NCBI GenBank assembly: GCA_041751935.1
Contig: JBGSIA010000057.1
Location: 1 to 64,000, forward strand
From: Pirellulaceae bacterium
GTDB lineage: Bacteria > Planctomycetota > Planctomycetia > Pirellulales > Pirellulaceae
Direction: 5' to 3'
DNA: 64,000 bases
Shown here: positions 35,418-56,473 of the stretch, piece after piece
How positions within the stretch are numbered: the stretch's first letter is position 1
How the letters are laid out: the number at the start of each line of letters is the position of its first letter
Made by a program: the position numbers and the translations under genes
Notes under the pieces: generated by a model
Seen by the model: the letters and a program-made list of their open reading frames with translations, nothing else
What the model was told of the DNA's origin: nothing
Database searches by the model: none

Positions 35418-35666
35418 GACCGGTGTTCCCTCTCGTTAGGGATCTGGACCCAGAATAAGCCTAATAAACCCGATGGCTTGCACCGCGAAGGTGTGGTCAA
35501 TCGGGTTTTTTTCGTTCGCTTTGCTTGGGGAAAAACACGAAAATTTAATTTCTAGGGATCTTCGTAACTTCTTTTAGCTAGCAAGTGCCAGCCAGGGTGG
35601 CTAAAAACTTGCATGCGTTCGAGGAGCGCTGACATATCCATTCAACGCGTGAAGGGTCGATTATCA

Positions 35667-37586
35667 ATGAGTGTTGCGGAGTCAGATGTTTGGACCGGAG
35701 CAGATTCTGCAGCACTGTATGACGTCGACCGTTGGGGAGACGGGTACTTTCACGTCTCTGCCGAAGGCCGGTTGCTGGTTTCCCCAGATCGTGATCCCTC
35801 GCACTCGCTCGACCTAAAGGATCTTGTCGATCGACTGATTCAGCGAGGTCTCGATCTGCCAATCTTGGTTCGCTTCAACGGAATCTTGCAAGATCGACTG
35901 CGTCAGCTACATGATTGCTTTAGCATCGCAATCGCTGATCATGAGTACCAGAACCGCTATCGCTGTGTCTTTCCGATCAAGGTCAACCAGCAGCGTGAAG
36001 TTGTCCAGAAAGTGATCCAGTACGGGCGCGAATTCGGCTTCGGTGTCGAGGCCGGCAGTAAGCCAGAGCTGCTAGCCGTCGTAGCGATGACGGACCCTCA
36101 GATGCCGATCATTTGCAATGGGTTCAAAGATGACGACTTCATTCGTATGGCTTTGCTCGCTCAACAGATCGGCCGCACGGTAATCCCTGTCGTGGAAAAA
36201 GTTAGCGAACTGAGCCTTATCCTGCGTCACAGCAAAGAAATTGGCGTCCGCCCAACGATTGGAATGCGAGTCAAACTTGCGACACGTGGATCGGGACGTT
36301 GGCAAGCCAGTGGTGGATATCGTTCGAAATTTGGGCTGACGGTTGGCGAGATGCTCCAGCAGCTGGATCGTCTCGAAGCCTGTGGAATGGCTGATTGCTT
36401 TAAGCTGCTCCATTTTCACGTCGGCAGCCAAATTACTCATATTCGTCAGCTCAAGAGCGCCATTCTCGAGGCGGCGAGGATCTACGTTGATCTGCATCGG
36501 CGCGGAGCAGGGCTGGAATACTTGGACGTTGGCGGTGGACTCGGTGTTGACTATGACGGGTCACGCACTGACACGGAATCCAGCATGAATTACACCATGC
36601 AAGAATACGCTAACGACGTTGTTTACCATGTCCAGACAGTGTGCGATGAAGCCGGGGTGCCCCATCCTCAGTTGGTTTCTGAGAGTGGTCGCGCCGTTGC
36701 TGCGCATCACAGCGTTTTGATCATGGATACGTTGGGAGTGACCGCCCAGGGGAATTTTCATGAACTGCCTGCAGAAATTCCCGAAGAGTTCGAGCAACCG
36801 GTGCATGACCTGTGGTCGACCTACCAGGACCTCACTTCGGAGAATTTTCTCGAATCGTTCCACGATGCACAGGCTTCGTTGGATCTGTCAATGAATTTAT
36901 TCAGTGGCGGTTACCTGCCACTTGAACAGCGAGTCACAGCAGAGAACTTGTACTTTGCAATATGCAATCGGATTCAGGAGATCACGGCCGAAATGGTTGA
37001 GGCTCCTGAAGAGGTGAAAGACCTCGATCGGATGCTGTCAGACATCTACTTCGCCAATTTTTCATTGTTTCAATCGATGCCCGACTCGTGGGCAATCGAT
37101 CAGCTCTTTCCGGTGATGCCGATCCACCGCCTGGATGAGCGGCCAACACGGCATGCGGTTCTCGGTGATATCACCTGCGACAGCGACGGAAAAATCGATG
37201 GTTTTGTTTGTGGCGGACGGCGACAACGGACATTGATGTTGCACGAATTTCGACCCGATGAGCCATACCAAATCGCGGTTTTTATGGTCGGAGCCTATCA
37301 AGAAATTCTTGGCGATCTGCACAATCTGTTCGGTGATACGCATGCCGTGCATGTAGACCTGCAGGGTGACTCAGCAACGATCCAGTCGATCGTTAAGGGC
37401 GATACCGTGAGCGAAGTGCTGCGATATGTCCAGTTCGATGACCGGGAACTCATCGAGAAGCTGCAGGATGCCGTCGAGGAAGCCGTGCAAGCCGGGCGGA
37501 TCGATAATGAGCAAGCTGGAAAAACAATTCGCTTCTACGAAAAGGCTTTGGGCAGCTACACCTATTTACTTGGTGAAACTGAATGA
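35667..37586 (+). CDS. speA: Biosynthetic arginine decarboxylase
   Basis: Collinear with E. coli SpeA: 'YDVDRWGDGYFHVSAEGRLLVSPD' matches the N-terminus. The fold-III PLP region is 'FPIKVNQQREVV' and the C-terminal region is 'DITCDSDGKI'. The start is ATG at 35667 or 35613. Confidence 0.85.
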   Translation: MSVAESDVWTGADSAALYDVDRWGDGYFHVSAEGRLLVSPDRDPSHSLDLKDLVDRLIQRGLDLPILVRFNGILQDRLRQLHDCFSIAIADHEYQNRYRCVFPIKVNQQREVVQKVIQYGREFGFGVEAGSKPELLAVVAMTDPQMPIICNGFKDDDFIRMALLAQQIGRTVIPVVEKVSELSLILRHSKEIGVRPTIGMRVKLATRGSGRWQASGGYRSKFGLTVGEMLQQLDRLEACGMADCFKLLHFHVGSQITHIRQLKSAILEAARIYVDLHRRGAGLEYLDVGGGLGVDYDGSRTDTESSMNYTMQEYANDVVYHVQTVCDEAGVPHPQLVSESGRAVAAHHSVLIMDTLGVTAQGNFHELPAEIPEEFEQPVHDLWSTYQDLTSENFLESFHDAQASLDLSMNLFSGGYLPLEQRVTAENLYFAICNRIQEITAEMVEAPEEVKDLDRMLSDIYFANFSLFQSMPDSWAIDQLFPVMPIHRLDERPTRHAVLGDITCDSDGKIDGFVCGGRRQRTLMLHEFRPDEPYQIAVFMVGAYQEILGDLHNLFGDTHAVHVDLQGDSATIQSIVKGDTVSEVLRYVQFDDRELIEKLQDAVEEAVQAGRIDNEQAGKTIRFYEKALGSYTYLLGETE

Positions 37587-37762: not shown

Positions 37763-39079
37763 TTACACGCCATCGATGTAGCGATTGACGATGTTTTCGA
37801 GCAGTTCCTGGCGACCGCTTTGATTGGCCGACGCATCGCCCTTTTCAATCATCAATGACTCCAGTTCCTTCAGCCCTATCGTTCCGGCTTCAATTTTCTT
37901 TCCGAGTTCCGAATGCCAACTGCTGTATCGCTCGTCGACAATCTTGTCGATTGCCCGGTCCGCTCGGATCGCAGCAGCAATTTTGAGTCCTCTCGCGAAC
38001 GCATCCATGCCTCCGATGTGCGCGTAGAACAAATCAATCGGCTCGAAACTTTCTCGCCGAACCTTAGCGTCAAAATTAACGCCGCCCGGCGCCAGTCCGT
38101 ACTTCAGAAGCACCAGCATTGTCTGAGTCGTCAAGTAATAGTCGGTGGGAAATTGATCGGTGTCCCAACCCAACAAAAGGTCACCGGTGTTGGCATCGAT
38201 ACTGCCCAGTGCCCCTTGCATACCGGCGTACTCAAGTTCGTGCATCATCGTATGCCCAGCAAGCGTTGCGTGGTTGGTCTCGATGTTCAACTTAAAGTGG
38301 TCCATCAAGTCATAGGCCCGCAAGAAATTGATGCACGCTGCAGCGTCCGAATCGTATTGATGCTTGGTCGGCTCCTTGGGTTTCGGCTCAATCAAGAACT
38401 GACCTTTGAATCCGATTTCCTTGGCGTAATCAACGGCCATGTGGAAGAAGCGGGCCAAGTGATCCAGTTCCCGCTTCATGTCGGTGTTGTACAAGTTTTG
38501 ATAGCCCTCACGCCCACCCCAAAAAACATAGTTCTCGCCGCCAAGAGCATGCGTGACTTCCAGTGCTTTTTTAACTTGAGCCGCCGCGTAGGCATAAACT
38601 TCGACGTTGCACGTTGTCGCCGCGCCGTGCATAAACCGCGGATTGCTAAACATGTTTGCGGTGCCCCACAGCAGCTTGACGCCGCTACGCTTTTGCTCCT
38701 CGCCAAGCACCTTGGCCACGGCATCAAAATTGGCATTGGTATCTCTCAGCGATCCACCTTCGGGAGCGACGTCACGGTCGTGGAACGCATAGAAGGGAAC
38801 GCCAAGCTTTTCGAAGAACTCGAATGCGACTCGCGCACGATTGCACGCGTTCTCTACCGACTCGCTGCCATCGTCCCAGGGGCGATGCATCGTTCCACCG
38901 CCAAACGGATCGCTGCCGGTACCTCGAAACGTGTGCCAATAACAAACCGTGAATCTCAAGTGGTCTCGCATCGACTTGCCCTCGACGATTTCATCGGGGT
39001 TGTACCAGCGAAATGCCAACGGGTTGCTGCTTTGAGGGCCCTCGTACTGAATCTTGGCGATGTTAGAAAATGCGGACAC
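37763..39079 (-). CDS. xylA: Xylose isomerase
   Basis: '[21 protein letters not shown]' and 'FHDRD' match the XylA N-terminus, and 'WGGREGY' is the metal site. The GTG at 39079 gives a 438-aa product, matching E. coli XylA (440 aa). The longer 39163 start adds 28 aa. Confidence 0.85.
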
Positions 39080-39317
39080 CGTGGATACTCTTGTGGGTGA
39101 AAAGGAAGGAAATTTCGTGAAGGCTATTGTGCAAAGTCTGAGGAAAGTTGCTAGTGCTTTCACTCAGCTTAAATTTATTTCCGGCTCTGTTAAGTTCATC
39201 GCATTCCTATTGAACTCCTTTCGTTGCGTGCCCGTGCAGTCAACGTGATACAACGAAAAAAAACAAAATTACACATTCGCACGAATTCATTTCTTCTAAT
39301 CAACGCCTGAGATCAAA

Positions 39318-42899: not shown

Positions 42900-43085
42900 A
42901 ATCTGCTTGACACGCCGCAGCAAGTCCATGATGTTATAGGAGTTACGGCTCTTAGTCAGGCGAATTTCGCTGGGCTAGTTGTTCGCCGAACGAACTGAAC
43001 GTCGCCTATCCGAGTAACCACACTGGTGCGCACGTTGCACTGTTTTCTTGTCCTAGTTTCCTCGTCTCAACCAAACAGACCCATT

Positions 43086-44783
43086 ATGCGGCGACTTAGC
43101 GGTCAACATCGGCACCGAGTTACGATCATCGCTACCGCGATTTTGTCGCTGGCCACGCTCTGCATCGCCGCCCCGGCCCACGCCTACAAACCCGAAGATC
43201 CCGAGGTTGTCGCAATCGTTGACAAGGCGATCGGTTACTTGGAGCGGCTGACCGAAGAACAAATTCGGGCAACACCTTATGGTGGAGGCGACGGACAGAT
43301 TTTTTTGGTGGCGTATACCCATTTCAAATACGTTCACGACGAGAATTCGAAAGTCGTCAAATTAGGGCTTGATAACGCGACCACGTTTATTGCCAATATT
43401 AAGAAAGATGGAGGTAAATTCCAGCCGACAGCGAAAACGATTTATGAACTATCGATGGCACTGTTGCTGCTGGCGGAAGTCAAGCCGATAGAACGCGCGG
43501 CAGATCTACAGTTCCTCGCAGATACGCTGTATAACCTCCAGAAACCGCACGCTGGGTTTGGATATCCAACGCTGCCCACAGGTGATATTTCGATGGTCCA
43601 GTACGTGGCTTTGGCTTCCTGGACGCTGGATCATGCCGGGGTAAAGCTGTCGTTGGATCGCGTCAATCGGTTGCTAGGCTGGACGATGCGCGTGCAGGAT
43701 GTCAGTGGCGTCTGGCCTTACCAAGGCGAAGATCCAGGGCCTGGACGTGGTCTCATTGCCCAGCCACGCGAAGAGATGTCTGTCCAAATGGGGCTCGCGG
43801 GCGGTAGTGCTGTGCTGATCCTTTCAGACGTATTTCGGATTTGGGACAACGCTGTCGGTGGTTCTCGCTTGGAGGGACTGCCCAAGGCACTCAAGCAAGT
43901 TGATAAGTCGGAGGTGGTTGCGGAGCGTCGAAAAAAATCGCCAGTTAAACAAGAAGAAGTAATCGCTGCCCTGCGACGTATGGATAGTTTTCGAGATCGC
44001 AATCCGTTCAAGCGTGATTCAAAACACGACTGGTACTACTATTATCTTTATACCCTCGAGCGATACGAAAGCTTCAACGAATTGGCAACCGGCCGAGCCA
44101 CTTCCAATGCTTGGTATGACCAGAATGTAGATGAACTCCGACGTGTGCAGGATGGCTCCGGTGGCTGGGCAATCAAAGATTCATCCGTGGTCGGAGCACC
44201 GGTTAGTACTTGTCTAGCGATTTTGTTTTTGATTCGTAGCACGCAGAAAGCAATTGCTAGCATCAGCAAAGGAACGATGGCTGGCGGTTACTCGCTTCCA
44301 TCAAACACAGCAGAAGTGCAAATCAAGGGCACTCAAGTTGTCAAACAACCAGTAGCGACCGCGGTTACCGATCTACTGGATTTGCTCGAGGGCGATGGTG
44401 CCGACAAGATCGAAGACAAATCGATTCCTGAAGATCTTAAGTTGGAAACGGAGCCCGCGGCGCGGGCAGCACAACTGGATCGCCTAATGAGGCTTGTTCG
44501 CGGTAGTCAATCGTGGCAAGCAAGACGGGTTGCCGCTCGTTTGCTTGGCTCCAGTGATGAGCTTAAGGTTGTTCCGGCACTGATCTTTGCGCTCAGCGAT
44601 GGCGACAAACTCGTCCGGGCATATGCTCAAGATGGATTGACTTTCATAGGGCGAAAGTTCACTTCGGAAGTGGACCTCTCCGAAGTAGATCCCAAATCCG
44701 CTGCTGTTTCCCAGGCCCAGAAGCAATGGACCCAGTGGTATCGAACCATTGTTCCTGATTATGTCAGCCAAGACGAGTTCTAG
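43086..44783 (+). CDS. Secreted prenyltransferase/squalene-oxidase-repeat protein with C-terminal HEAT repeats
   Basis: A signal peptide, QxxDGSGxW-type repeats (VQDVSGVWPYQ, VQDGSGGWAIK), and the C-terminal HEAT-like 'VVPALIFALSDGDKLVRAYA'. Confidence 0.5.
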   Translation: MRRLSGQHRHRVTIIATAILSLATLCIAAPAHAYKPEDPEVVAIVDKAIGYLERLTEEQIRATPYGGGDGQIFLVAYTHFKYVHDENSKVVKLGLDNATTFIANIKKDGGKFQPTAKTIYELSMALLLLAEVKPIERAADLQFLADTLYNLQKPHAGFGYPTLPTGDISMVQYVALASWTLDHAGVKLSLDRVNRLLGWTMRVQDVSGVWPYQGEDPGPGRGLIAQPREEMSVQMGLAGGSAVLILSDVFRIWDNAVGGSRLEGLPKALKQVDKSEVVAERRKKSPVKQEEVIAALRRMDSFRDRNPFKRDSKHDWYYYYLYTLERYESFNELATGRATSNAWYDQNVDELRRVQDGSGGWAIKDSSVVGAPVSTCLAILFLIRSTQKAIASISKGTMAGGYSLPSNTAEVQIKGTQVVKQPVATAVTDLLDLLEGDGADKIEDKSIPEDLKLETEPAARAAQLDRLMRLVRGSQSWQARRVAARLLGSSDELKVVPALIFALSDGDKLVRAYAQDGLTFIGRKFTSEVDLSEVDPKSAAVSQAQKQWTQWYRTIVPDYVSQDEF

Positions 44784-44804: not shown

Positions 44805-45650
44805 TTGAGCTCACTTCACACAAATACGCCCTACGAGCTGACGCTAGCTGCCGGCCGCGTGGAAAAGAACTACTGGCGTGACCTGTGGCGATACCGTGAA
44901 CTTTTTCAGGTACTTGCATGGCGCGACATCTCGGTGCGATACAAGCAAACGGTCGCTGGTGTTGCCTGGGCTCTTATTCGCCCGTTTGTAACGATCGCCG
45001 TGCTTACTGTAGTTTTCGGAAAACTTGCTCAATTACCCAGCGATGGTAACACCCCGTACCCGCTCATGGTTTTCGCTGGCATGCTTCCGTGGATGTTTTT
45101 ATCATCAACGTTATCAGACGCTTCTAATAGCCTCATCAATAGCGCAAATCTGATCAGCAAAGTCTATTTTCCTCGACTGATTGTCCCTGCCGCAACGATC
45201 TGTGCCGGGCTGATTGATTTAGCGATAAGCTTTGTCGCATTATTGATACTGATGGCGTGGTATCTCTATCTTCCTGGACCTCAAATACTATTGTTTCCGT
45301 TATTCGTGCTGCTTGCAATCGTTTCGACCTTGGGCCCCAGTCTGTGGATTTCTGCAGTCAACGTTCGCTATCGAGATTTTCGGCACCTCGTACCGTTCGC
45401 TATTCAAATTGGCTTTTATGCATCACCAGTTGGATTCAGTAGTAATGTCATTCCCGAACAATACCGATTATGGTATTCCCTGAACCCCATCGTCGGTATA
45501 ATTGACGGGTTTCGCTGGTGCATTCTCGGTAATCAATCGCCACTGTATTTTCCTGGCCTTCTGGTGAGCATCACGTTTAGTATCCTGTTTCTTGCGTTGG
45601 GTATACGAAGGTTTCGCAAAGTCGAGCGCCAATTTGCCGACTTAATTTAG
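44805..45650 (+). CDS. wzm: ABC-2 type polysaccharide export permease (Wzm/KpsM/TagG family)
   Basis: 'WRYRELFQVLAWRDISVRYKQT' is the Wzm N-terminal signature, followed by 6 TM helices. The start is a non-ATG TTG at 44805. Confidence 0.75.
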   Translation: MSSLHTNTPYELTLAAGRVEKNYWRDLWRYRELFQVLAWRDISVRYKQTVAGVAWALIRPFVTIAVLTVVFGKLAQLPSDGNTPYPLMVFAGMLPWMFLSSTLSDASNSLINSANLISKVYFPRLIVPAATICAGLIDLAISFVALLILMAWYLYLPGPQILLFPLFVLLAIVSTLGPSLWISAVNVRYRDFRHLVPFAIQIGFYASPVGFSSNVIPEQYRLWYSLNPIVGIIDGFRWCILGNQSPLYFPGLLVSITFSILFLALGIRRFRKVERQFADLI

Positions 45651-45700
45651 CCTGCTGGTTAGAGACCCAGCGGATAGTTGCCAGTCCATCACTTATCAAC

Positions 45701-47008
45701 ATGATCACCATTAGAGAGCTTGGTAAGTCGTATCTCCTGGGTCACCAGGAGAGCAGTTCGTCCTTATCGATGGATTTACGAGAATCATTCACCGCCGGAA
45801 TTCGGCGAACTGCGAGAAATGCGTGGCATGCGATCTCCGGACGGCAGCTCATTCAGGGCGACACGATTGAAGAGTTTTGGGCGATTAAGGATATCAACCT
45901 CGACGTGAACCAAGGAGAAGTCATTGGTATCATTGGTCGCAATGGAGCGGGAAAAAGTACACTTTTAAAGATACTCAGCCGGATCACTGAGCCAACACTT
46001 GGCTACGTTACTTTGAGGGGCCGCGTTGCGAGTTTGTTGGAAGTTGGGACTGGCTTCCATTCAGAGTTGACCGGGCGTGAAAATGTTTTTCTCAATGGCG
46101 CAATTCTAGGGATGAATCGTGCCGAAATACGCTCCAAATTCGACGAAATTGTTGAGTTCGCCGGCGTTCAACGATTTCTGGACACACCGGTCAAGCGATA
46201 CTCTTCCGGAATGTATGTTCGCCTCGCGTTTGCTGTTGCAGCGCATCTTGAGCCAGAAATACTCGTGGTCGACGAGGTGCTCGCCGTAGGTGATGCTGAT
46301 TTCCAAAAAAAGTGTCTTGGAAAAATGCAAGATGTGGCTGCGGGGGGGCGGACCGTGCTATTTGTCAGCCACAACATGACCACCGTTCGTGCTTTGACTC
46401 AAAAATGCGTTTGGCTAAAATCCGGACGTTTGATGGCTTTTGAACCAACGGCCCAGGCGATTGATCGATACCTTTCCGACGGTCTAGCGGAAGCTACTCG
46501 TGGTGTTTCGTTAGATTACTTCCGGCGAGACCTTCGGCCGGACTCGCCTGTTAGAATTGTAGAAATCGCCGTATCCGGACATGACAAACAAGGCGACAAG
46601 ATTCCGACAATCGAGGACGGAGAGTTTCGCCAGGTCGCGATTTCGATACAGTCGGACATTCCAGTTGAGTCGGCGAAAATATCACTCTTACTTAAACGCG
46701 ACGGGGAAGATACCGTATGCTGCCTTTACTCCAGCGATGGAGGTGATGTGATTCGTTTGTCGCCGGGAATGAATTTAGTGAAATGCACCCTGCCTAGGCT
46801 GCACCTACCCTCGGGGCGTTTTACCATTGGAATGGGCGTTAGCCCTCGCACGGATTCACCCATCATTGATGTAATCCAAGACTACCCACTTTTCGAAAGC
46901 CGTCTCCGCGGAGCAGAAAACGGCACACTCGAGTATGCCACTCGGCCTTGGGGTGCTGTTTTTCTTCCCGATGCGCGATGGGAGGTTGTCGCCCATGACT
47001 CGCGTTAA
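45701..47008 (+). CDS. wzt: Polysaccharide ABC transporter ATP-binding protein with C-terminal glycan-binding domain (Wzt/TagH family)
   Basis: Walker A 'GRNGAGKST', the ABC signature 'YSSGMYVRLAFAVA', Walker B 'ILVVDE', and a ~180-aa C-terminal beta domain as in Wzt. Confidence 0.8.
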   Translation: MITIRELGKSYLLGHQESSSSLSMDLRESFTAGIRRTARNAWHAISGRQLIQGDTIEEFWAIKDINLDVNQGEVIGIIGRNGAGKSTLLKILSRITEPTLGYVTLRGRVASLLEVGTGFHSELTGRENVFLNGAILGMNRAEIRSKFDEIVEFAGVQRFLDTPVKRYSSGMYVRLAFAVAAHLEPEILVVDEVLAVGDADFQKKCLGKMQDVAAGGRTVLFVSHNMTTVRALTQKCVWLKSGRLMAFEPTAQAIDRYLSDGLAEATRGVSLDYFRRDLRPDSPVRIVEIAVSGHDKQGDKIPTIEDGEFRQVAISIQSDIPVESAKISLLLKRDGEDTVCCLYSSDGGDVIRLSPGMNLVKCTLPRLHLPSGRFTIGMGVSPRTDSPIIDVIQDYPLFESRLRGAENGTLEYATRPWGAVFLPDARWEVVAHDSR

Positions 47009-48140
47009 CTCATCTTATCCCATACCTTTCAACAAACCTTTTGTCGCTGGCAAAGAGCTGTATTACATTGCTCAAGCGGTCACCATGGGGAATCTTGGTG
47101 GTGATGCTCATTTTACTCAAATGTGCTGCCGGACTTTACAAAACCGGTTTGGGATCTCCAAGGTACTCCTTACGCCTTCCTGTACCGCGGCTTTGGAGTT
47201 GGCGTCGATGTTGTGTCAGTTCGATCAAGGCGATGAAGTGATCATGCCATCGTACACATTTGTGTCGACGGCCTCGGCATTCGTCCGTGAGGGAGCTAAA
47301 CCTGTATTCGTCGATATATGCCCGGACACGCTCAATATCGACCCCAAGCAAATCGAGCAAGCCATTACACCGCGAACGAAAGCTGTTTGCGTCGTTCACT
47401 ATGCCGGCGTTGCGTGTGAAATGGATGTCATCTGCGATATAACGCGGCGACATAAGCTGATTCTCATTGAAGATGCCGCTCAAGCTGTCAATTCCTTCTA
47501 CAAAGACAAAGCGTTGGGATCAATCGGCGATCTGGGGTGCTACAGCTTTCACGAAACAAAAAATTACATATGTGGTGAAGGGGGCGCTCTTTGCATCAAT
47601 AATGAAAAGTTCGTCGAGCGAGCCGAGATACTTCGCGACAAAGGCACGAATCGACAGAAGTTTATGCGTGGGCTCGTGGATAAATACACTTGGGTTGATG
47701 TCGGGTCCTCGTATGTCCCCAGCGAACTCTGTGCTGCGTTTCTTTTTGGCCAACTTGAAGAAATGGATCGAATCTCCTCGCGGCGCCATGAAATTTATGA
47801 TCGTTACTTTAGCACACTGCAGCCGCTCCTCAACCATGGGATTCAGCTTCCAGTAATTCCGCCGTCCTGCCGCAGTAATTTTCATCTTTACTTTTTGATT
47901 CTCCGCTCCGCGTTGCAACGCGACGAAGTTCTAGCGAAATTGAGAGAGCAAGGTATTGGCGCCGTATTTCATTATGTACCATTGCATACCTCTCCTCAAG
48001 GGAAGCAGTATTCTGTAAATGTCAGACTTCCCATTACGGAGGATCTCAGTGCTCGACTGATTCGCTTGCCCTTCTACTATGACCTCACCGAAAACGAGCA
48101 ACAACGTGTGATATCCTTGTTAATTGAACTTCTTTCCTAA
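46995..48140 (+). CDS. wecE: dTDP-4-amino-4,6-dideoxy-D-galactose (Fuc4N) transaminase, DegT/DnrJ/EryC1 family
   Basis: Near-collinear with E. coli WecE: 'PFNKPFVAGKELYYIAQAV', 'LLTPSCTAALELA', 'MPSYTFVSTA', 'HYAGVACEMD', 'FHETKNY', 'REKGTNR', 'DKYTWVD', 'FHYVPLH' and 'LIRLPFYYDL'. A GGAGG sequence lies 10 nt upstream. Confidence 0.85.
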   Translation: MTRVNSSYPIPFNKPFVAGKELYYIAQAVTMGNLGGDAHFTQMCCRTLQNRFGISKVLLTPSCTAALELASMLCQFDQGDEVIMPSYTFVSTASAFVREGAKPVFVDICPDTLNIDPKQIEQAITPRTKAVCVVHYAGVACEMDVICDITRRHKLILIEDAAQAVNSFYKDKALGSIGDLGCYSFHETKNYICGEGGALCINNEKFVERAEILRDKGTNRQKFMRGLVDKYTWVDVGSSYVPSELCAAFLFGQLEEMDRISSRRHEIYDRYFSTLQPLLNHGIQLPVIPPSCRSNFHLYFLILRSALQRDEVLAKLREQGIGAVFHYVPLHTSPQGKQYSVNVRLPITEDLSARLIRLPFYYDLTENEQQRVISLLIELLS

Positions 48141-48147
48141 TAAATAA

Positions 48148-48912
48148 ATGAATCTTGGCAGCAATCTTCCGAAGGTTAAAGAACTACAATGGGACAGTGA
48201 GTTTTTCGGCTTTCGTGTCGCCTGTCTTAGGAATTGCAACGATACGCGTTCGGCAAGGTCGCTTATTTACCAGGCTTTACAATCCGGCATAAAGCTAGTT
48301 TACCTATCCGTTGATATTGACAATGCAAAAAATCTCGCGTCGTTCAAAACGGCATTCGCGTCAAGGCATGTTGTTGACCATCTGAAATATCGCTACCGGA
48401 TCCCTTCGGCAGCTCAGTCGCCCATAGGCGACTTGCCCAGCCGCTGGGCTGTCCACCGCTATGCTCAGGGAAATGCCGACGAATCGCTTGTAAAATTGGC
48501 ATTGCAAGCTGGATCACGCTCGCGATTTAACGTAGACGCCAAATTTGGGAAAGTAGTTTTCGAAAAACTTTACGAAACCTGGATTCATCGCAGTTGTCGT
48601 CGTGAGATTGCTGACACCGTCGAAGTAATCGAAGATGAAAGCGGCGAAGCTGTTGGCCTGGTCACTCTGCGTGTAGCAGGGAATTGTTGTAGTATTGGAT
48701 TAATCGCAGTATCGCCAGAATACCATGGTCGCGGTCTTGGAAAACTCCTGATTGACCGAGTGATCTGCTATGCGACTCAGCACGGGTGTAAAGAAGTATC
48801 CGTCGTGACGCAAGCGGAAAATAGTCCGGCAATTCACCTGTACGAGTCATGCGGGTTTGTATGCTGCGAGAAGAACGCCTGGTTTCATTTTTGGAATGAA
48901 GTGGAACGATGA
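48148..48912 (+). CDS. wecD: GNAT acetyltransferase, WecD/RffC-like dTDP-fucosamine N-acetyltransferase
   Basis: The C-terminal GNAT core is 'GLIAVSPEYHGRGLGKLLID...VTQAENSPAIHLYESCGF'. Its position between wecE and wecF homologs mirrors the ECA operon. Confidence 0.6.
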   Translation: MNLGSNLPKVKELQWDSEFFGFRVACLRNCNDTRSARSLIYQALQSGIKLVYLSVDIDNAKNLASFKTAFASRHVVDHLKYRYRIPSAAQSPIGDLPSRWAVHRYAQGNADESLVKLALQAGSRSRFNVDAKFGKVVFEKLYETWIHRSCRREIADTVEVIEDESGEAVGLVTLRVAGNCCSIGLIAVSPEYHGRGLGKLLIDRVICYATQHGCKEVSVVTQAENSPAIHLYESCGFVCCEKNAWFHFWNEVER

Positions 48913-50087
48913 ACTCATTCATTCATTTAATACCCGATGACCCCAAGTTTGTAGCATACATAGTCGAATACTTTAGTGCAGTAGTTCCGCATCGCCATCG
49001 GTACGTGTTAATGGGCAGTCGCAGTGACCACTATCACGCTTATCCTCATTTGCTTTACCATAACGAGGAAGTAAACAAAGTTTTCGAATTGACAAAGGAC
49101 GCTAGGGGTGTAATAACGCATGGAATGTACGGGAATCAGGTCAGCGTTATCAACCAATTGTCAGCGACCGTACCTGTTGCCTGGATCCCATTTGGAGCCG
49201 AGTACCACGACAATTTACCCGAGTTCAAATGTCGCTTGCTGTTCAAAAAAACAGAAAGTCTTAAGTACGCCGAAGTTGAACTGCGATCCAGTAACAGATT
49301 GCGAAGATTGTTGAGGTCCTGCAGAGGCTGTCTCCAGCGTATGCAGTCGAGTCGAGTAAGGAATCGTCAATACTCGGCAATTCGTCAAGCGATGCAGCGA
49401 GCCAATGTGATCGGATTGTTTCTTGAAGAAGAATTCGAGCTACTTCGTGCAAAACTCAACGTCAGCGCGAAGTGGAGCTGGTTTACTTATTACAACATTT
49501 TGGATACTGTCGGTTCCGAGCTGATTGACCAGAACGCATCTGGCAATGATGTTCTAGTCGGAAACTCAAGCGACCCATCAAACAACCACGTCGAGGCAAT
49601 AGATTTACTGGTACAGCATCGTAATCATTTTGATCGTGCGATTGTTCCCCTAAGCTATGGTGACCCAAACTACCGAGAAAGGATACTTGACTATGGATTG
49701 AAACAATTGAACGATCAATTCGCTCCACTTACTCAGTTTGTCGAGCGGACGGAATACAACCGTTTGCTTTTGTCATGCAAGGTAGCAATCATGAATCATC
49801 GACGGCAACAAGCGGTCGGCAATGTGATTACTCTGCTTTGGCTAGGGGCGAAGGTCTATATGACTAACGAGAGCACTGTGTTTCAGTATTTCAAGCGTCA
49901 AGGCCTGTGCGTGTTTTCAATTGAAGACGATCTCCTTGGTTCGACGGATCCAGCTTCTGCTTTTGCAGGACTCAGTATCCAGCAAGTAGGATCAAACCGT
50001 TCGCGTCTGGAACAACTGTTTTCGCGATCAGCCGTCATTTCTGGAGCAGTCAATCTTATCGACGATCTGGAACGAGTGAATTCTTGA
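48909..50087 (+). CDS. wecF: WecF/RffT-like 4-alpha-L-fucosyl(Fuc4NAc) transferase (GT56)
   Basis: 'IHLIPDDPKF' compares with E. coli 'IHVLGSDIPHHN', and 'VLVGNSSDPSNNHVEAIDLL' with '[20 protein letters not shown]'. ATG overlaps the wecD stop as ATGA. Confidence 0.65.
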   Translation: MNSFIHLIPDDPKFVAYIVEYFSAVVPHRHRYVLMGSRSDHYHAYPHLLYHNEEVNKVFELTKDARGVITHGMYGNQVSVINQLSATVPVAWIPFGAEYHDNLPEFKCRLLFKKTESLKYAEVELRSSNRLRRLLRSCRGCLQRMQSSRVRNRQYSAIRQAMQRANVIGLFLEEEFELLRAKLNVSAKWSWFTYYNILDTVGSELIDQNASGNDVLVGNSSDPSNNHVEAIDLLVQHRNHFDRAIVPLSYGDPNYRERILDYGLKQLNDQFAPLTQFVERTEYNRLLLSCKVAIMNHRRQQAVGNVITLLWLGAKVYMTNESTVFQYFKRQGLCVFSIEDDLLGSTDPASAFAGLSIQQVGSNRSRLEQLFSRSAVISGAVNLIDDLERVNS

Positions 50088-50122
50088 ATGGATTGTATTG
50101 AGAAACGAATTACCGGGTTTGT

Positions 50123-51145
50123 TTATGCAGCGGTCCGGGTAAATTTTGGTCGAAAATACCTAGAGAGCAATCGTAGCACTGCACCAAACGTTCTCGTTGA
50201 CAAACGTGCTCCAGGGTCCTCAAGCATCTTGCGAAAAATTTTTGTCGATGAGCGAAAAGGGGACTGATCGAAATCGTCAAGTAATTCAACTAAGTATTGG
50301 TGCCACGGTTGTCGACGGCGGCCCAAGCGAGAAGCGTAAGCGAGGTGTGGAGGGAGCATTTTCTCCAGCTTCGTTCGAATTAGATCGCTCTCAAGCTTGA
50401 ATCGATTGTCAGTATTTGAGTCTTTGGCCGATTCAACGACTGTTTTAGATTGGTCATGAATCCGAAAAATCGCCCCCACGGTATCCGAGTAAAAGACGCA
50501 GGGACTCGCTGCGAGATAGCGGATCAGGAGGTCCCAGTCGAATCCGTAATTTAAGTTTCTGTCGATTCCGCCACAGGCCAGCAATAGATTGGTGCGATAC
50601 CATATGCCCGGCTGGCTGAAAGAGTAGCGGTCGTCCCGCAATATGCTTTCGGCGTTGAGATTGTAGTTTTTCATCAAGTATGGCCGATGTGAGTTGCCTT
50701 CGACGGATACGGGAAAAGTGTAAAGGTCGACGTCCTGCTTCATGTTCTGGCCCAATTCGCGAAGCACACCGGGCCGTAAATAATCGTCCGAGTTGATCCA
50801 GTTAAATACATCACCATTTGCCAATTTGATTCCTTTGCAGATCGCATCGGACTGGCCCTCATCGCTTTCGCGAATTACGCAAGAAATATACTCGGAATAC
50901 CTGTCGAGAATCTCATGACTGTTATCAGTGCTACCTCCATCGACGACTATGTATTGAAGATTGGGGTAGTCTTGTAACAAGATCGAACGAATCGTCGCTT
51001 CGAGGTAGTTACCTTGATTGAAGCTTGGGGTAACGATGGTCACTGACGGGAGGTTTGCCTCTCGCAATTCATGGACGTTTCGTTGCTCGGATTCCCAGGG
51101 CCAACCGCAAAGTTTCTTGGGGGGGGCGGGGAGTGGTAGTTGCAT
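50123..51145 (-). CDS. Glycosyltransferase family 2
   Basis: 'VTIVTPSFNQGNYLEATIRSILLQDYPNLQYIVVDGGSTD' is the GT2 DxD region. The start is the internal ATG at 51145 (MQLPLP); the longer 51304 start would overlap the divergent gene. Confidence 0.7.
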   Translation of the reverse strand: MQLPLPAPPKKLCGWPWESEQRNVHELREANLPSVTIVTPSFNQGNYLEATIRSILLQDYPNLQYIVVDGGSTDNSHEILDRYSEYISCVIRESDEGQSDAICKGIKLANGDVFNWINSDDYLRPGVLRELGQNMKQDVDLYTFPVSVEGNSHRPYLMKNYNLNAESILRDDRYSFSQPGIWYRTNLLLACGGIDRNLNYGFDWDLLIRYLAASPCVFYSDTVGAIFRIHDQSKTVVESAKDSNTDNRFKLESDLIRTKLEKMLPPHLAYASRLGRRRQPWHQYLVELLDDFDQSPFRSSTKIFRKMLEDPGARLSTRTFGAVLRLLSRYFRPKFTRTAA

Positions 51146-51258
51146 CACTGTTTCCTCTTCAGCAAAGTATCGACGAGATCTAAGTGTACTGATATTCTTT
51201 GCTAGTGTGGCTAGATTTCGAGAGTCATTTATCTTTCCCGTTCTGCTGAGAAATATTG

Positions 51259-51969
51259 ATGAAATCCATCGCCCATTCGGATGTGGAAGAGTTGAAGGCC
51301 GCAAAAAAGCGACTTTATCCTTCGCTGCTTAACGACCGTTACTATCTGTTGACACAATACCGAAAGTGTTTGCAAGTGCTAATCGACAGTCAGTCGTTAG
51401 TCGAGTCGGCGACCATTGTCGACTTCGGGTGCGGCGAGATGCCCTATCGCAGCCTTTTTCCGGATTCCTGTCATTATATTGGTGCCGATATTGCAAGTAA
51501 CTCCAATGCCAATACTCTGGTGAGCGAAAAAGGCACCGTTGAATTGCCTGATGCGTCGGCGGATCTAGTGCTTTCACTTCAAGTGTTGGAGCATGTAGCC
51601 GACACGAAAAGCTATCTCGCAGAGTGCCACCGATTGCTAAAGCCTCAGGGGGCTCTAATTCTTACGACTCATGGCCATTGGATGTATCATCCGCACCCTA
51701 CGGATTTCTGGCGTTGGACTGCGGATGGATTGGATTTAACACTTTCTAATAGCGGATTTGACGTCGTTCACATTTCTGGGGTGCTTAGCCTCGCCGCGAC
51801 AGGTGCTAATTTATTCCAGGATGGCTGGATGCCGCGGCTGCCTCGAGTAATGAAGATGCCGTTTGGGCTTTTCATGCAATCGGTGATCGCATTGAGCGAC
51901 TGGCTTGCACCAAGCGCTGCAGGGCCAACTGACTGCGCGACACTACTGACACTATCCAAGCGCGTTTGA
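51259..51969 (+). CDS. Class I SAM-dependent methyltransferase
   Basis: 'VDFGCGEMPY' is motif I, with 'LVLSLQVLEHV' and 'LLKPQGALIL' downstream. Confidence 0.65.
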   Translation: MKSIAHSDVEELKAAKKRLYPSLLNDRYYLLTQYRKCLQVLIDSQSLVESATIVDFGCGEMPYRSLFPDSCHYIGADIASNSNANTLVSEKGTVELPDASADLVLSLQVLEHVADTKSYLAECHRLLKPQGALILTTHGHWMYHPHPTDFWRWTADGLDLTLSNSGFDVVHISGVLSLAATGANLFQDGWMPRLPRVMKMPFGLFMQSVIALSDWLAPSAAGPTDCATLLTLSKRV

Positions 51970-52024
51970 GAGGAGTGATTCCCAGCATCAGCCGTCGCAT
52001 AGTGCTTCGGTAAATTAATTCCGC

Positions 52025-53191
52025 TCAGGCATCAAGGCCACTGGGCCAGCAACGACGAAAGCTGGCTATCTGGTCAAATACCTTCAAGAGTGATTCCACG
52101 TATTGATTCATGTTGAGATTTTCGACTCGGGCCACTCCTCGATCGATATATTTTTGACGTTCTGTCGGACTGCTGAGTAGTCGCTGAATCGCTATCGCCA
52201 TCTCTTGTTCGTTTGTCGGAGCGACAAGGATAGCGGCCTCACCCAGTTGTTCGCTCGCGCCTGGGACTGCCGAAGCAATAACTGGGCAAGCCAGACGCAT
52301 CGCTTCGATGGGAGGCAGATTGTCGGGGCCGAATAAACTTGCAAAAACTAGAGAGACTGCATTGCTGTATAGCCAGCGCATCTCAGCATCTGTAACGAAC
52401 CCTGGATACAATACATCCACATCCAATGCTTCAGCGGTAGAGCGAATGTAATTTAGGGTGCAGTATCGATCGAGGCTTGATGAGCCAGGAAAGACAGCTT
52501 GGATATAAGTTCCAAAGTCGTCCTTCAGCCGACGCATTGCTCGCAGAATCGTAATGTGATTCTTGTGCGGCCAGAACTGTGCCGGGTAGATAACGAAAGG
52601 TTGGCCAGGCGCCCATGAAGGACGCACGGCTTCGGTCGTTATGAGGGCCTCTGGAACCGCGAATGGAATAACAGCTATACGTTCGTTTGCCACTCCGTAG
52701 AATCGCTCGACTTCCGCTTTTCCCTGTTCGGTCCCCGTGATCACTGCAGCGGCCCTGCGTAACGTGTTGCAGTAATGGTTTTCACGATTCTGCCACGTCC
52801 ATCCAGTTGTTGAGACTTCTGGAAAAAAGGGTTGCATGCGATGCTGAAGATCCCAGCATGTAACGACGAACGGGAGCTCATCACAGATCGTGCTTGGATG
52901 CGGCGAAAAGAGTAAGTCGATTTCATGTTGTCCAAGAGAATCCTTGAACACCTTTGACTGCGAAGTCGTCAAGTTTAGCCGTTCAAGGAGTAAACGTGAT
53001 CGAGTTACGGGGGCAAGGGGAGGGAGCTGTATGTGTTTTAAGTCAACCGTCTTGTCAGCCGAGTGATTGACTAGGAAAAAATCATGGCTCGACCCCGAAT
53101 TGGCAGCTAATGCGGTGGTGACTTCCGACTCAAACCGAGCGCTACCGCCAAGTTTTGACGAATAGCCAGCAAGGTACACTCCGATTTTCAT
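52025..53191 (-). CDS. Glycosyltransferase family 4 (GT-B, retaining)
   Basis: The C-terminal 'FASLFGPDNLPPIEAMRLACPVIAS' is the GT4 EX7E region. ATG overlaps the upstream stop as ATGA. Confidence 0.75.
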   Translation of the reverse strand: MKIGVYLAGYSSKLGGSARFESEVTTALAANSGSSHDFFLVNHSADKTVDLKHIQLPPLAPVTRSRLLLERLNLTTSQSKVFKDSLGQHEIDLLFSPHPSTICDELPFVVTCWDLQHRMQPFFPEVSTTGWTWQNRENHYCNTLRRAAAVITGTEQGKAEVERFYGVANERIAVIPFAVPEALITTEAVRPSWAPGQPFVIYPAQFWPHKNHITILRAMRRLKDDFGTYIQAVFPGSSSLDRYCTLNYIRSTAEALDVDVLYPGFVTDAEMRWLYSNAVSLVFASLFGPDNLPPIEAMRLACPVIASAVPGASEQLGEAAILVAPTNEQEMAIAIQRLLSSPTERQKYIDRGVARVENLNMNQYVESLLKVFDQIASFRRCWPSGLDA

Positions 53192-54306
53192 GCCGAGTCC
53201 TCTAACGCCGCGATAAGCACTCTGCAAACTTGGCGCACGTCATCATCCTTTAAGCCCAAGCCACTTGGCACGTATAATCCCCTTCGCGCGAGTCGTTCAG
53301 CAACCGGATAGTGTTCGCCATCAAATAGCTTCATGGATTTGAAGATAGGTTGTTCGTGCATCGGCCAAAAGAATGGTCGTGTTCCAATTTGTGCTTCGCC
53401 AAGACGTGCTGCGAGTTCTTTAGCCGAAAGAGTTACTGTTTCATCAAGAACAAGTCCAAATACCCAATAGATGTTTTCTGCATAGCGAGAAGATGCTTGG
53501 GGCAAGGTAATACCCGGCGCCTCGGAGAGCAGATTGTGATACAAGCGACCTATTTCTCGCTTTCGCTGGACATGCGGTTCCAGACGCTCCAATTGCGCCA
53601 ATCCAAGTGCGGCTTGCATATTGGTCATGCGATAGTTCCATCCTAGTTCGTCATGGATAAAACGCTGTTTGGGTTGGAAGCAGAGGTTGCGTAGTCGGCG
53701 GCAGTGTTCAGCAATTTCGTCGTCGTCTGTAACAACCATACCACCTTCACCACAGGTGATGTGTTTGTTCGGGTAAAAGCTAAACGTGCTAATAAGTCCA
53801 AAATTTCCGCAGGGCCGATCTCGATAAGTTTGACCATGCATTTCCGCAGCATCTTCAATTACTTTCAGTCCATAACGTGCCGCAATATCAAGTATTCGGT
53901 CCATATCTGCGGGCAGGCCATAGATATGCACAACTAAAATAGCTTTAGTCTTGCTGGAAATTTTTGCTTCGATTTGATCTACATCCATGTTCCATGTCAG
54001 CGGATCGCTATCGACGAGCTTTGGGACACCGCCTGCGCGAACGACGGATGCGGCTGGCGAGATGATCGTAAACGTAGGCATGATTACTTCGTCGCCGGGG
54101 CCAATTCCAGCCGCTGCGACTGCAATGTCGAGTGCTCCCGAGCCATTTGCACATGATATGCCATGGCGTCGACCGACATGGCCTGCGAAGGCCTCTTCGA
54201 ATTTACTGACGAATGGCCCCTCGCTACTAATCCAGCCGGAATCGATACATTCGATGAGATACTTTTTCTCGTTGCCGTCCAATAGAGGTGTGTTGACCGG
54301 AATCAT
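53188..54306 (-). CDS. DegT/DnrJ/EryC1/StrS-family PLP sugar aminotransferase (nucleotide-sugar 3- or 4-aminotransferase)
   Basis: 'GDEVIMPTFTIISPA', 'HIYGLPADMD' and 'FSFYPNKHITCGEGG' hold the PLP-Lys region. Confidence 0.8.
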   Translation of the reverse strand: MIPVNTPLLDGNEKKYLIECIDSGWISSEGPFVSKFEEAFAGHVGRRHGISCANGSGALDIAVAAAGIGPGDEVIMPTFTIISPAASVVRAGGVPKLVDSDPLTWNMDVDQIEAKISSKTKAILVVHIYGLPADMDRILDIAARYGLKVIEDAAEMHGQTYRDRPCGNFGLISTFSFYPNKHITCGEGGMVVTDDDEIAEHCRRLRNLCFQPKQRFIHDELGWNYRMTNMQAALGLAQLERLEPHVQRKREIGRLYHNLLSEAPGITLPQASSRYAENIYWVFGLVLDETVTLSAKELAARLGEAQIGTRPFFWPMHEQPIFKSMKLFDGEHYPVAERLARRGLYVPSGLGLKDDDVRQVCRVLIAALEDSA

Positions 54307-54316
54307 GGAAAAACTG

Positions 54317-55105
54317 TTAGTTGATTTTTTTCGCTACGAAAGTAATTCCCCAGGTATTGCAACTGGGCGCGGCGCCGCTAAGCCACTCTTCCTGGTGGAC
54401 GATTTTAAGTCCGTTCCGCTCAGCGATCCATTCCAACTCGGGTGTGAAATAGTATCGCATGAGGTGATGTTCAGAAAAACGAGAGACACGTCCAGTTTCG
54501 CGATCGGTGACAATAATCTCATAGTGCACATCAACACAATTGCGGTTAACGTTCTGCACAGGTTCCGCAATTCGCAGAACGTCAATTGCGTCAGACGACA
54601 TTCGCTTCACCCGAACGGCTGGTCTTTCGCTGAGTACCGCTGGCCCATACCAAACATCAAACAAAAATATGCCTGATGGTTTCAGGTGCAACGCGGCTGT
54701 CTCAAACATCGCCGCAACATCTTCATTTGTTGTTTGATAGCTGACGACGTGAAACAGAGCGAGCACAGCGTCATAGCGTGTCTCGCTGCGAAATGCTTTT
54801 GCGTCGCCGAGAAGTACATGCAAAGATCCGGTGGCATTTGCTTGTGAGGCGGGTTCGACACTCAACGATCGTATGATGGCTCGATCATACATCTCTGGAC
54901 TTCGTTCCACGCCGGTGACACGCATGCCCGAGCGAGCTAGCAATTCACCGTGCTTTCCCGTACCACAGCCCAATTCAAGGAGTTCAATGGGGTGATCACC
55001 GAATGAATTCAGCAGCGATAGAATATAAGCGGATTCCGCTTCATAGTTCTTGTCTTGGTAAAGTACGTCGTAGTAGCTGCTGTACAGTCCGAATGGATCA
55101 CTCAC
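54317..55105 (-). CDS. Sugar N,N-dimethyltransferase-like SAM methyltransferase (TylM1/DesVI family)
   Basis: 'YYDVLYQDKNYEAESAYILSLL...LLELGCGTGKHGELLA' matches the TylM1 N-terminus and motif I. The C-terminal region through 'MRYYFTPELEWIAERNGL' keeps the family architecture. The start is GTG at 55105 or TTG at 55138. Confidence 0.6.
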   Translation of the reverse strand: MSDPFGLYSSYYDVLYQDKNYEAESAYILSLLNSFGDHPIELLELGCGTGKHGELLARSGMRVTGVERSPEMYDRAIIRSLSVEPASQANATGSLHVLLGDAKAFRSETRYDAVLALFHVVSYQTTNEDVAAMFETAALHLKPSGIFLFDVWYGPAVLSERPAVRVKRMSSDAIDVLRIAEPVQNVNRNCVDVHYEIIVTDRETGRVSRFSEHHLMRYYFTPELEWIAERNGLKIVHQEEWLSGAAPSCNTWGITFVAKKIN

Positions 55106-55532
55106 GAATGCGAATCCTTTCTGTGGACACTGGTTCAAAGCGTGTCTTGTCTTGGTCGCCGAAGTAGGGACCTTGCTTGACCTCGATAATGACGGACGGT
55201 TCCAGCATTTCTAAGCCGTGGCCTCCAGCGGCGAGCAAGATTACGTCACCGGATGTGAGGATGCTGCTTTCGAGATAATGTTTCCCGTCGGTATAAAAGT
55301 CGACTCGCACTTTGCCTGACTTGATGAGCAGTACTTCTTGCGTCCAGACGACAGCACGTTCTACAGGATTGTGGACATGCGGTTCGATCACATATCCCGT
55401 AGGACGGTTCATGTAGCCAAGTTGTTGAGAAAAAACACTTGGCGTAAAGAATTCAATGCCATCAGAGTGGAAACTTGAGCGAATGATGATTGCTATTGTT
55501 TGGTCGATGTGCTTAATGTGTTCAACGCTCAT
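55098..55532 (-). CDS. Cupin-fold dTDP-4-keto-6-deoxyhexose 3,4-ketoisomerase (FdtA/QdtA/WxcM-like)
   Basis: 144 aa with a HxH metal/catalytic pair in 'EPHVHNPVE' and a cupin beta-core. Its place beside the aminotransferase and methyltransferase supports the call. Confidence 0.5.
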   Translation of the reverse strand: MSVEHIKHIDQTIAIIIRSSFHSDGIEFFTPSVFSQQLGYMNRPTGYVIEPHVHNPVERAVVWTQEVLLIKSGKVRVDFYTDGKHYLESSILTSGDVILLAAGGHGLEMLEPSVIIEVKQGPYFGDQDKTRFEPVSTERIRIRE

Positions 55533-55552
55533 GCCGCAGCCGAATTGTGTTG

Positions 55553-56473
55553 CTAGGTGAATGATGTGGGATTACGTCGCCGCAAGACTGGCCCGGCGAT
55601 TGCCTTGACGCTTTCCGTTAGCCACCAAACGAGCATTTTCGGTTCTATAGTGACGAGCTGCATCAAAAACGCGAATCGATCTTTTTTGAAGGACTGGATT
55701 TGGCTAAGCAATTCCATCACACGATGTTTCCAGTTTACCTTTTGATGGTGTTGTCGCCAGAGTGCCCGATGCTTGCGATAGATGTAGAGACGGCCTTGGA
55801 CATTGCGACGATCGCTTTTGGACATCTGTTCGGCGTGCTGATAATACCGAACTAGCAGTTCGGGCACACTCGAATAGTGGCATTTTTCTGCTAGCCGGAG
55901 ATGCAAATCCCATTCTTGAAAGCTGGGGCAACTTTCGTCCAGGCCACCTACTTCCCGCAAAATTTGCGTGGCAATTAGGGCGGCGTTCATGTCGACGTAG
56001 GTCTGTCCATTGAGGAGCTGTGGGACGATCATCCCCACCGGTGTCCAGGTGAAAGATCCCACGGTAGTTTCTTTGCCCTCCGATTCTTCGACAAGTCGTG
56101 AATGGCAGGTGATGATTGTTGCTGGAGGTTTGTTTATCGCCTGAGAGATCAGTGTTTCGATCATTCGTGGCTCAAGGCAATCGTCTGAATCGAGGAAAAC
56201 AACGTACGTTCCAGTGGCGTGATCAAGCCCAGTGTTGCGGGCTCCGGGCGCCCCTTTGGTGCGCGCATTTACCAACACAATCATCCTCGCATCGGATCGC
56301 ATCAATGCCGTGGCAATCTCGAGTGTTGAGTCTGCGGAGCCATCATCGACAATTAGGAGTTCTAGCTTCGTATGAGTCTGGGCGAGAACGCTATTTATGG
56401 AACGTGCAATTGTCGCTTCCCGATTAAAAGCTGGGACAATGACGGAAACGAGAATGTCCTTAGCGGCGATCAC
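55553..56473 (-). CDS. Glycosyltransferase family 2
   Basis: 'VSVIVPAFNREATIARSINSVLAQTHTKLELLIVDDGSADST...FLDSDD'. GTG start. Confidence 0.75.
   Translation of the reverse strand: MIAAKDILVSVIVPAFNREATIARSINSVLAQTHTKLELLIVDDGSADSTLEIATALMRSDARMIVLVNARTKGAPGARNTGLDHATGTYVVFLDSDDCLEPRMIETLISQAINKPPATIITCHSRLVEESEGKETTVGSFTWTPVGMIVPQLLNGQTYVDMNAALIATQILREVGGLDESCPSFQEWDLHLRLAEKCHYSSVPELLVRYYQHAEQMSKSDRRNVQGRLYIYRKHRALWRQHHQKVNWKHRVMELLSQIQSFKKDRFAFLMQLVTIEPKMLVWWLTESVKAIAGPVLRRRNPTSFT

Follow-up and report, generated by a model that had tools for sequence, protein, structure and literature searches.

In Escherichia coli K-12, the cluster for enterobacterial common antigen (ECA) has the order rffG-rffH-rffC(wecD)-wecE-wzxE-wecF-wzyE-rffM, in which WecE, WecD and WecF make and transfer 4-acetamido-4,6-dideoxy-D-galactose (Fuc4NAc). 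The same sugar is found in the side branch of the E. coli O10 O-antigen (PMC7685785) and, according to PMC11271524 which cites Perepelov et al. 2013, in the O-polysaccharide of the flavobacterium Cellulophaga pacifica. The sugar is thus a component of ordinary O-antigens and is not confined to Enterobacterales. A genome survey from 2020 reported the pathway for this sugar in Gammaproteobacteria only (PMC7725333), and published genomic evidence from other phyla is scarce. Here we describe a glycan gene island from a Pirellulaceae bacterium, located at 44805-56473 of a 64-kb stretch of contig JBGSIA010000057.1 (positions 1 to 64,000, hereafter the window). It carries homologs of the three ECA enzymes directly behind an ATP-binding cassette (ABC) exporter of the Wzm/Wzt type. 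We consider it probable that this mosaic, low-GC island serves an ABC-transporter-dependent surface glycan containing Fuc4NAc, built and exported by the route proposed below.

The Wzm-Wzt-WecE-WecD-GT56 operon

Five co-oriented open reading frames (ORFs) fill positions 44805-50087 of the plus strand and form the left arm of the 11.7-kb island, whose GC content is 0.492 compared with 0.533 for the remaining window. They encode the ABC-2 type permease Wzm (44805-45650, with a TTG start as listed), Wzt with a nucleotide-binding domain and a carbohydrate-binding domain (CBD) (45701-47008), a WecE homolog, predicted to be a pyridoxal phosphate (PLP)-dependent dTDP-4-keto-6-deoxy-D-glucose 4-aminotransferase (46995-48140), a WecD-family two-domain GNAT protein, predicted to be a dTDP-4-amino-4,6-dideoxyhexose N-acetyltransferase (48148-48912), and a GT56-family glycosyltransferase with a WecF-like donor domain and a divergent N-terminal half (48909-50087). 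Reading frames overlap at two of the junctions, and both overlaps are those announced by the original prediction. The WecE frame opens at 46935, and translation probably begins at the ATG of 46995, with a GGAGG 9 nt ahead of it, inside wzt. As the stop codon of wzt ends at 47008, the two genes overlap by the expected 14 nt. The WecD-like and GT56 genes share 'gaacgATGAactc' at 48909-48912. NCBI gene calls on a 77-kb contig match the boundaries exactly (435 aa for Wzt, 381 for WecE, 254 for the WecD-like protein and 392 for GT56), and the five genes are one operon. The matches behind the family assignments, given below, greatly exceed what chance would produce. A HEAT-repeat gene (43026-44783) ends only 21 nt before Wzm. 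It was considered as a further member and left out because its GC (0.523) is like that of the flank and because it is not conserved beside Wzm in L024 or L027, two loci carrying related exporters. Promoter and terminator scans gave nothing better than shuffled sequence, and the island is marked neither by a tRNA or Rfam family nor by a convincing repeat in its flanks.

The WecE homolog passes two NCBI models for this enzyme: the WecE equivalog NF008687, where it reaches 563.6 bits for a cut-off of 375, and TIGR02379, where the figures are 523.4 and 434.85. Its near collinearity with the E. coli protein, claimed from the sequence at the outset, is borne out by an alignment with K-12 WecE at 53% identity over 375 aa with three single-residue gaps (3e-142). 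The lysine of the SFHETK motif, K189 in the query, is aligned to E. coli K181, the PLP lysine. Among solved structures, WecE 4PIW (1e-124) ranks ahead of ArnB (6e-54) and of the 3-aminotransferase QdtB (3e-44). The homolog thus does not group with 3-aminotransferases, the alternative that the original prediction had itself named, and this similarity ranking supports its assignment as a 4-aminotransferase rather than a 3-aminotransferase.

The acetyltransferase is more distant from its E. coli counterpart. It matches Pfam Acetyltransf_1 at 4e-20, and its best NCBIfam match is the WecD model NF008212, covered over its full length (residues 10-246 for model positions 7-229 of 232) at 84.6 bits for a cut-off of 219. 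Direct comparison with E. coli RffC gives 27% identity over 143 aa, with the acetyl-CoA loop RGLGK aligned with E. coli GRGAG, and a single-sequence search of the PDB ranks WecD low (3.8e-4). With a family profile built from 20 full-length homologs, the top solved match becomes E. coli WecD 2FS5 (1.2e-22), aligned over both domains (positions 4-239), while the next match (1.4e-14) is limited to the GNAT core. The AlphaFold 2 (AF2) model (pLDDT 92.6) also finds 2FS5 as its top Foldseek match (1.8e-15, TM 0.78). As judged by profile and predicted fold, the protein is a distant WecD-family two-domain enzyme lying below the NCBI equivalog threshold. The expectation of a WecD-type GNAT thus holds, with the caveat that wecE precedes the WecD-like gene here and follows wecD in E. 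coli.

The third gene of the trio was expected to be GT56-like and indeed matches Pfam PF07429 with 50.4 bits for a cut-off of 25; the failed GT56 assignment that would have spoken against a WecF-like enzyme was not observed. This match is restricted to residues 210-342, corresponding to profile positions 183-318 of 358. Similarly, BLASTP aligns the protein with E. coli WecF over 131 aa only (30% identity), and hhalign with a 22-sequence GT56 profile aligns columns 216-350 alone, to WecF 183-320; neither method detects any similarity to WecF in the N-terminal half. Since the resemblance is confined to the C-terminal half, the acceptor probably differs and the enzyme would not be a lipid II(ECA) transferase. 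GT56 enzymes are predicted in CAZy to have a two-domain GT-B layout. If this holds here, the nucleotide-sugar side would lie in the conserved half and the acceptor side in the divergent one, which points to the same or a similar donor used with a different acceptor. The family is widely distributed: at E ≤ 1e-3 we found 506 homologs, nearly all of those listed being precomputed as PF07429. Named proteins among them, from Flagellimonas, Lentisalinibacter, Accumulibacter and Serratia, are already annotated as WecF-type transferase. A genome scan, run with an 8-sequence alignment because the 22-sequence one was too diverse, placed GT56 homologs in genomes of Pirellulaceae, Burkholderiales, Flavobacteriaceae, Bacteroidales, Bacillota, Leifsonia and others.

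The exporter had been described as Wzm together with a Wzt bearing a C-terminal binding domain, and each part of this description stands. Wzm matches Pfam ABC2_membrane (5.8e-21); in NCBIfam it comes closest to the Wzm/RfbD galactan permease, without reaching the cut-off, and it is 44% and 38% identical to the Wzm of L024 and L027, respectively. The Wzt nucleotide-binding domain (about residues 56-257) matches that of Aquifex aeolicus Wzt (6AMX/8DKU, 7e-62) and has intact ATPase motifs (Walker A GRNGAGKST, signature YSSGM, Walker B ILVVDE and H-loop FVSHN). The tail of 178 residues (about 258-435) reaches only 18 bits with Pfam Wzt_C, below the cut-off of 30.4, and a word-index search with this domain alone returned no homologs. 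When 1.84 billion representatives were searched exhaustively with HMMER, 59 relatives were recovered, all at ≤35% identity and mostly located at the C-terminus of Wzt-length proteins. A profile of 23 such relatives matches only Wzt CBDs in the PDB (8DKY/6O14 at 4e-8, 5HNO at 1.8e-7, and the full-length 7K2T/8DKU at residues 257-372; all between 4e-8 and 3e-7), the next matches being noise (E about 0.7). In addition, the AF2 model of the tail (pLDDT 90.4) finds Wzt CBDs, to which it is 12-19% identical, in all of the first 17 Foldseek PDB ranks. On this profile and model evidence, the tail is a genuine, if divergent, Wzt carbohydrate-binding domain. One of the matched structures, 8DKY, contains the A. 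aeolicus domain with bound 3-O-methyl-mannose, so a methylated cap is already a known ligand for this domain type. Consistent with the proposed use of a route other than Wzx/Wzy, the window yielded neither Wzx nor Wzy; the scan, for these as for the other missing genes mentioned below, covered ORFs of at least 144 aa. No WbdD-like kinase/methyltransferase or WbbB-like 3-deoxy-D-manno-oct-2-ulosonic acid (Kdo) transferase was found in the cluster.

The other genes of the island

Beyond the operon, the island carries three further glycosyltransferases, two methyltransferases, a perosamine-synthase-like aminotransferase and a WbuC-like cupin. The first of these, the GT2 glycosyltransferase GT2a, is on the minus strand (50123-51304; Pfam Glycos_transf_2 3e-24). 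Homolog alignments begin at query residue 58, so its true start is likely the ATG near 51145. GT2a homologs are present in the Wzt-CBD clusters L026 and L027 (32% identity, 1e-37 to 1e-42).

On the plus strand, MT237 (51256-51969) is a class I S-adenosylmethionine-dependent methyltransferase (Pfam Methyltransf_11 3.4e-14) and a candidate glycan or cap methyltransferase, with no informative sequence match in the PDB. A homolog 41% identical lies directly downstream of Wzt in L024 (11362-12021), and it is for this sole reason that MT237 is named a candidate capping enzyme. Weaker homologs (about 30%) adjoin GT56 in three unrelated loci, L021 (6491-7207), L002 (11148-11828) and L019 (9014-9781). 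Judging from these neighbourhoods, MT237 may be either a capping enzyme or an enzyme modifying Fuc4NAc.

The right part of the island is a minus-strand unit of five genes. GT2b, a GT2 glycosyltransferase (55553-56473; Glycos_transf_2 6.8e-36), marks the right edge of the island, and its homologs come after GT56 in L001 and L023. It is followed by the WbuC-like cupin (55098-55532), which matches TIGR04366 cupin_WbuC at 7.7e-7 with 29 bits for a cut-off of 42 and has no Pfam or PDB match. MT273 (54317-55138) resembles nucleotide-aminosugar N-methyltransferases, its best PDB matches being the sugar N,N-dimethyltransferases DesVI (3BXO, 1.4e-18), TylM1 (3PFG, 2e-12) and CalS10 (6UK5, 4e-10). The second DegT-family aminotransferase (53188-54306; Pfam DegT 9e-117) is closest to GDP-perosamine synthase, as it matches perosamine synthetase 3BN1/3DR4 at 6e-93 compared with 8e-41 for the WecE-type 6BLG. 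The unit ends with a GT4 glycosyltransferase (52025-53227; Pfam Glycos_transf_1 1.7e-17 and Glyco_transf_4), in which an internal ATG at 53191 would overlap the stop of the upstream aminotransferase by 4 nt. Together, the aminotransferase, MT273 and the cupin (53188-55532) make up a second amino-sugar module. Its enzyme families suggest an N-methylated 4-amino-6-deoxyhexose as product, which would be unusual for a surface glycan.

Outside the island, the window encodes sulfatase, FG-GAP and HEAT-repeat proteins, which are typical of Planctomycetes. Together with the Pirellulaceae source of the closest WecE and GT56 relatives, they make a Planctomycete origin plausible. By exact look-up, 11 window proteins were found among about 15 billion proteins, all of them singletons at 90% identity, and this assembly seems to be the sole representative of its lineage. 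Two further observations concern other parts of the window. A 466-aa ORF on the minus strand (37763-39163) and a 395-aa ORF on the plus strand (37913-39100) overlap almost completely, and only the former has a Pfam match (AP_endonuc_2, 3.4e-9). Polyamine-related genes lie in 4031-7206 and 35613-37586: a 511-aa protein with a spermidine-synthase domain stands beside a flavin amine oxidase, with a biosynthetic arginine decarboxylase some 30 kb away.

Related loci, proposed pathway and alternatives

To place the operon among its relatives, neighbouring genes were scored by tblastn and hidden Markov models in 23 other GT56 loci. A WecE-type gene (49-71% identical) is near GT56 in most of them, and eight have a Wzx flippase beside GT56, an arrangement shared with E. 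coli ECA. The full WecE-WecD-GT56 trio is a conserved module that, apart from the window, only the two closest loci possess: L001, from a Pirellulaceae metagenome-assembled genome (MAG; CAXBGS010000001.1), and the metagenomic locus L021. The Pirellulaceae MAG provides the closest relatives of the window WecE and GT56. In L001 and L021 the proteins are 70-71% (WecE), 38-43% (WecD) and 39-46% (GT56) identical to those of the window, and the module is followed by a GT2 in L001 and by an MT237-like methyltransferase in L021. Both loci differ from the window in having Wzx and, within the available sequence, no Wzm/Wzt. In L001 the flippase is inserted between WecD and GT56, with two dehydratases and a Wzy_C protein upstream, while L021 has the order EpsG-Wzx-WecE-WecD-GT56-methyltransferase, with an EpsG-family polymerase.

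Other loci vary the same theme. L022 (4450-9228) combines a WecE relative (63.5%), a formyltransferase in place of the GNAT, GT56 and a Wzx flippase; this arrangement implies that GT56 enzymes could also handle 4-formamido-4,6-dideoxyhexose. In L004, L006, L008-L012, L014 and L020, which come from MAGs of Burkholderiales and related groups, GT56 is directly preceded by a WecE-type gene (52-60%), and a search of 10 kb around it gave no WecD-type GNAT, Wzx or Wzm/Wzt at the thresholds applied.

The closest Wzt relatives sit in clusters without Fuc4NAc genes. L024 encodes Wzm, Wzt (50% identical) and the MT237 homolog, preceded by an APH-type kinase and two further methyltransferases, and contains no Fuc4NAc genes within 10 kb. 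In L027 and L028, a methyltransferase and then a methyltransferase-GT4 fusion come after Wzt; in addition, L027 has Wzm upstream and the GT2a homolog. L026 (8001-14571) carries the GT2a homolog and two Wzt paralogs with Wzt_C domains, the first directly followed by a sulfotransferase-GT4 fusion that could be a sulfate-type chain terminator. The island thus has the appearance of a three-part mosaic, with a transporter unit (Wzm, Wzt, MT237 and GT2a), a Fuc4NAc unit (WecE, WecD and GT56) and a second amino-sugar unit.

From the gene identities, the operon structure and the binding domain established above, we infer the following route. The WecE homolog would aminate C4 of dTDP-4-keto-6-deoxyglucose supplied by RmlA/RmlB encoded elsewhere, and the WecD-type GNAT would N-acetylate the product to give dTDP-Fuc4NAc. 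At the cytoplasmic face, GT56 would move Fuc4NAc to a lipid-linked acceptor other than ECA lipid II. GT2a, GT4 and GT2b would add other residues, one of which may be a perosamine-like N-methylated amino sugar from the second aminotransferase and the DesVI-like methyltransferase. The non-reducing end of the finished chain would then be modified, possibly by MT237, the Wzt CBD would recognize this modified end and Wzm/Wzt would export the chain. Finally, enzymes encoded outside the window would attach it to lipid A-core, a protein or another acceptor.

Several observations weigh against this route. None of the 23 other GT56 loci has Wzm/Wzt, so the link between module and transporter is not conserved and rests on the operon structure in one genome. 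The pathway is also incomplete as seen: the window contains no rmlA/rmlB, initiating phosphoglycosyl transferase, O-antigen ligase or outer-membrane export gene. Gmd, a flippase and a polymerase were not found there either. At the level of individual enzymes, the GNAT falls short of the cut-offs of both WecD equivalog models (NF008212, as given above, and TIGR02382 with 45 for 195.1 bits), and GT56 of those for WecF (NF052570, 53.2 for 525 bits; NF002756, its best model, 157.2 for 457 bits). The capped nature of the glycan is a reasonable supposition, and the capping enzyme and the CBD ligand are guesses. The main chemical uncertainty is the C4 configuration of the sugar, which is not readable from sequence.

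The last point bears on an unlikely alternative, in which the module would make the C4 epimer dTDP-Qui4NAc (N-acetylviosamine) or another 4-acylamido-4,6-dideoxyhexose, the GT56 relatives transferring a broader set of 4-N-acyl sugars. The WecE homolog does pass TIGR02379, a subfamily model named for the gluco product, and the formyltransferase beside a WecE relative and GT56 in L022 shows that the acyl group varies within the module. Yet the same homolog passes the WecE equivalog NF008687 by a wide difference in bits and shares more than half of its residues with E. coli WecE, and its partners are an ECA-type two-domain GNAT and a GT56. The Qui4NAc pathway uses VioB, a left-handed beta-helix acetyltransferase. 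We thus favour Fuc4NAc, on the equivalog-level WecE score combined with the WecD-type GNAT and the GT56 partner. A less probable variant keeps Fuc4NAc and makes GT56 the chain terminator: a single Fuc4NAc at the non-reducing end, perhaps O-methylated by MT237, would be read by the divergent Wzt CBD as export signal. Such a role would fit the coupling of the Fuc4NAc genes to wzt by overlapping frames, the presence of MT237 homologs next to both Wzt (L024) and GT56 (L021, L002 and L019), the position of the CBD on a divergent branch (≤35% identity to any of its 59 relatives) and the availability of three other glycosyltransferases for the backbone. It is at odds with L001, L021 and L022, where the module belongs to Wzx-type clusters in which no cap is needed, and with L024, where the closest Wzt and MT237 homologs are found together without Fuc4NAc genes within 10 kb, which favours a methyl-type cap independent of Fuc4NAc. 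If true, an acetamido-dideoxyhexose would join methyl, phosphomethyl and beta-Kdo, the few export signals known for O-polysaccharide ABC transporters.

We regard it as very improbable that the adjacency of exporter and trio is incidental, with Wzm/Wzt exporting another polymer and the trio feeding a Wzx/Wzy pathway elsewhere in the genome. This would agree with the partner seen in all eight GT56 loci with a recognised export gene, and in E. coli ECA, which is Wzx and never Wzm/Wzt. Against it stand the 14-nt overlap with a Shine-Dalgarno sequence inside wzt, the shared orientation and shared low GC of the island, and the failure to find Wzx or Wzy in 64 kb. Export of a Fuc4NAc-containing glycan by the adjacent Wzm/Wzt therefore remains our preferred explanation of the locus.

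Relation to described systems

The island and the ECA cluster share the same three enzyme families for dTDP-Fuc4NAc: a WecE at 53% identity, a two-domain GNAT of WecD type and the GT56 donor domain. They differ in gene order, wecD preceding wecE in ECA, and in the export route that can be read from the genes, Wzx/Wzy in ECA and Wzm/Wzt here. Moreover, wecA, wecB, wecC, wecG, wzxE, wzyE, wzzE and rmlA/B were not found in the window. With no supply of N-acetylmannosaminuronic acid (ManNAcA), no WecA, WecG or Wzx/Wzy/Wzz in the window, and a GT56 whose N-terminal half is unlike WecF, the locus is not an ECA cluster.

Our results add genomic evidence that the dTDP-Fuc4NAc pathway and GT56 reach beyond Enterobacterales and Gammaproteobacteria, and they suggest that the Fuc4NAc module can plug into an ABC-transporter route instead of Wzx/Wzy. 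We found no paper describing the combination of a Fuc4NAc module with an ABC exporter, a search for publications on GT56 yielded nothing relevant, and the combination was not seen in the other sampled loci. The ABC route is unusual for this module, yet module swapping is normal in surface-glycan loci and no new mechanism is revealed. For Planctomycete-like organisms, the island also provides a concrete prediction on the composition of a surface glycan.

On the export side, the closest described systems are the CBD-dependent ABC exporters of E. coli O9a (2R5O), of Raoultella terrigena/Klebsiella O12 (5HNO) and of A. aeolicus (WzmWzt, 7K2T/8DKU/8DKY), with which the locus shares a Wzm permease and a Wzt ending in a C-terminal beta-sandwich. 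It departs from them in its CBD, which is far from the solved ones in sequence, and in having, instead of a WbdD- or WbbB-like cap enzyme, MT237 as sole candidate for this role. By analogy, the locus would work like the CBD-dependent Wzm/Wzt O-polysaccharide pathways of the O9a, O12 or Aquifex type.

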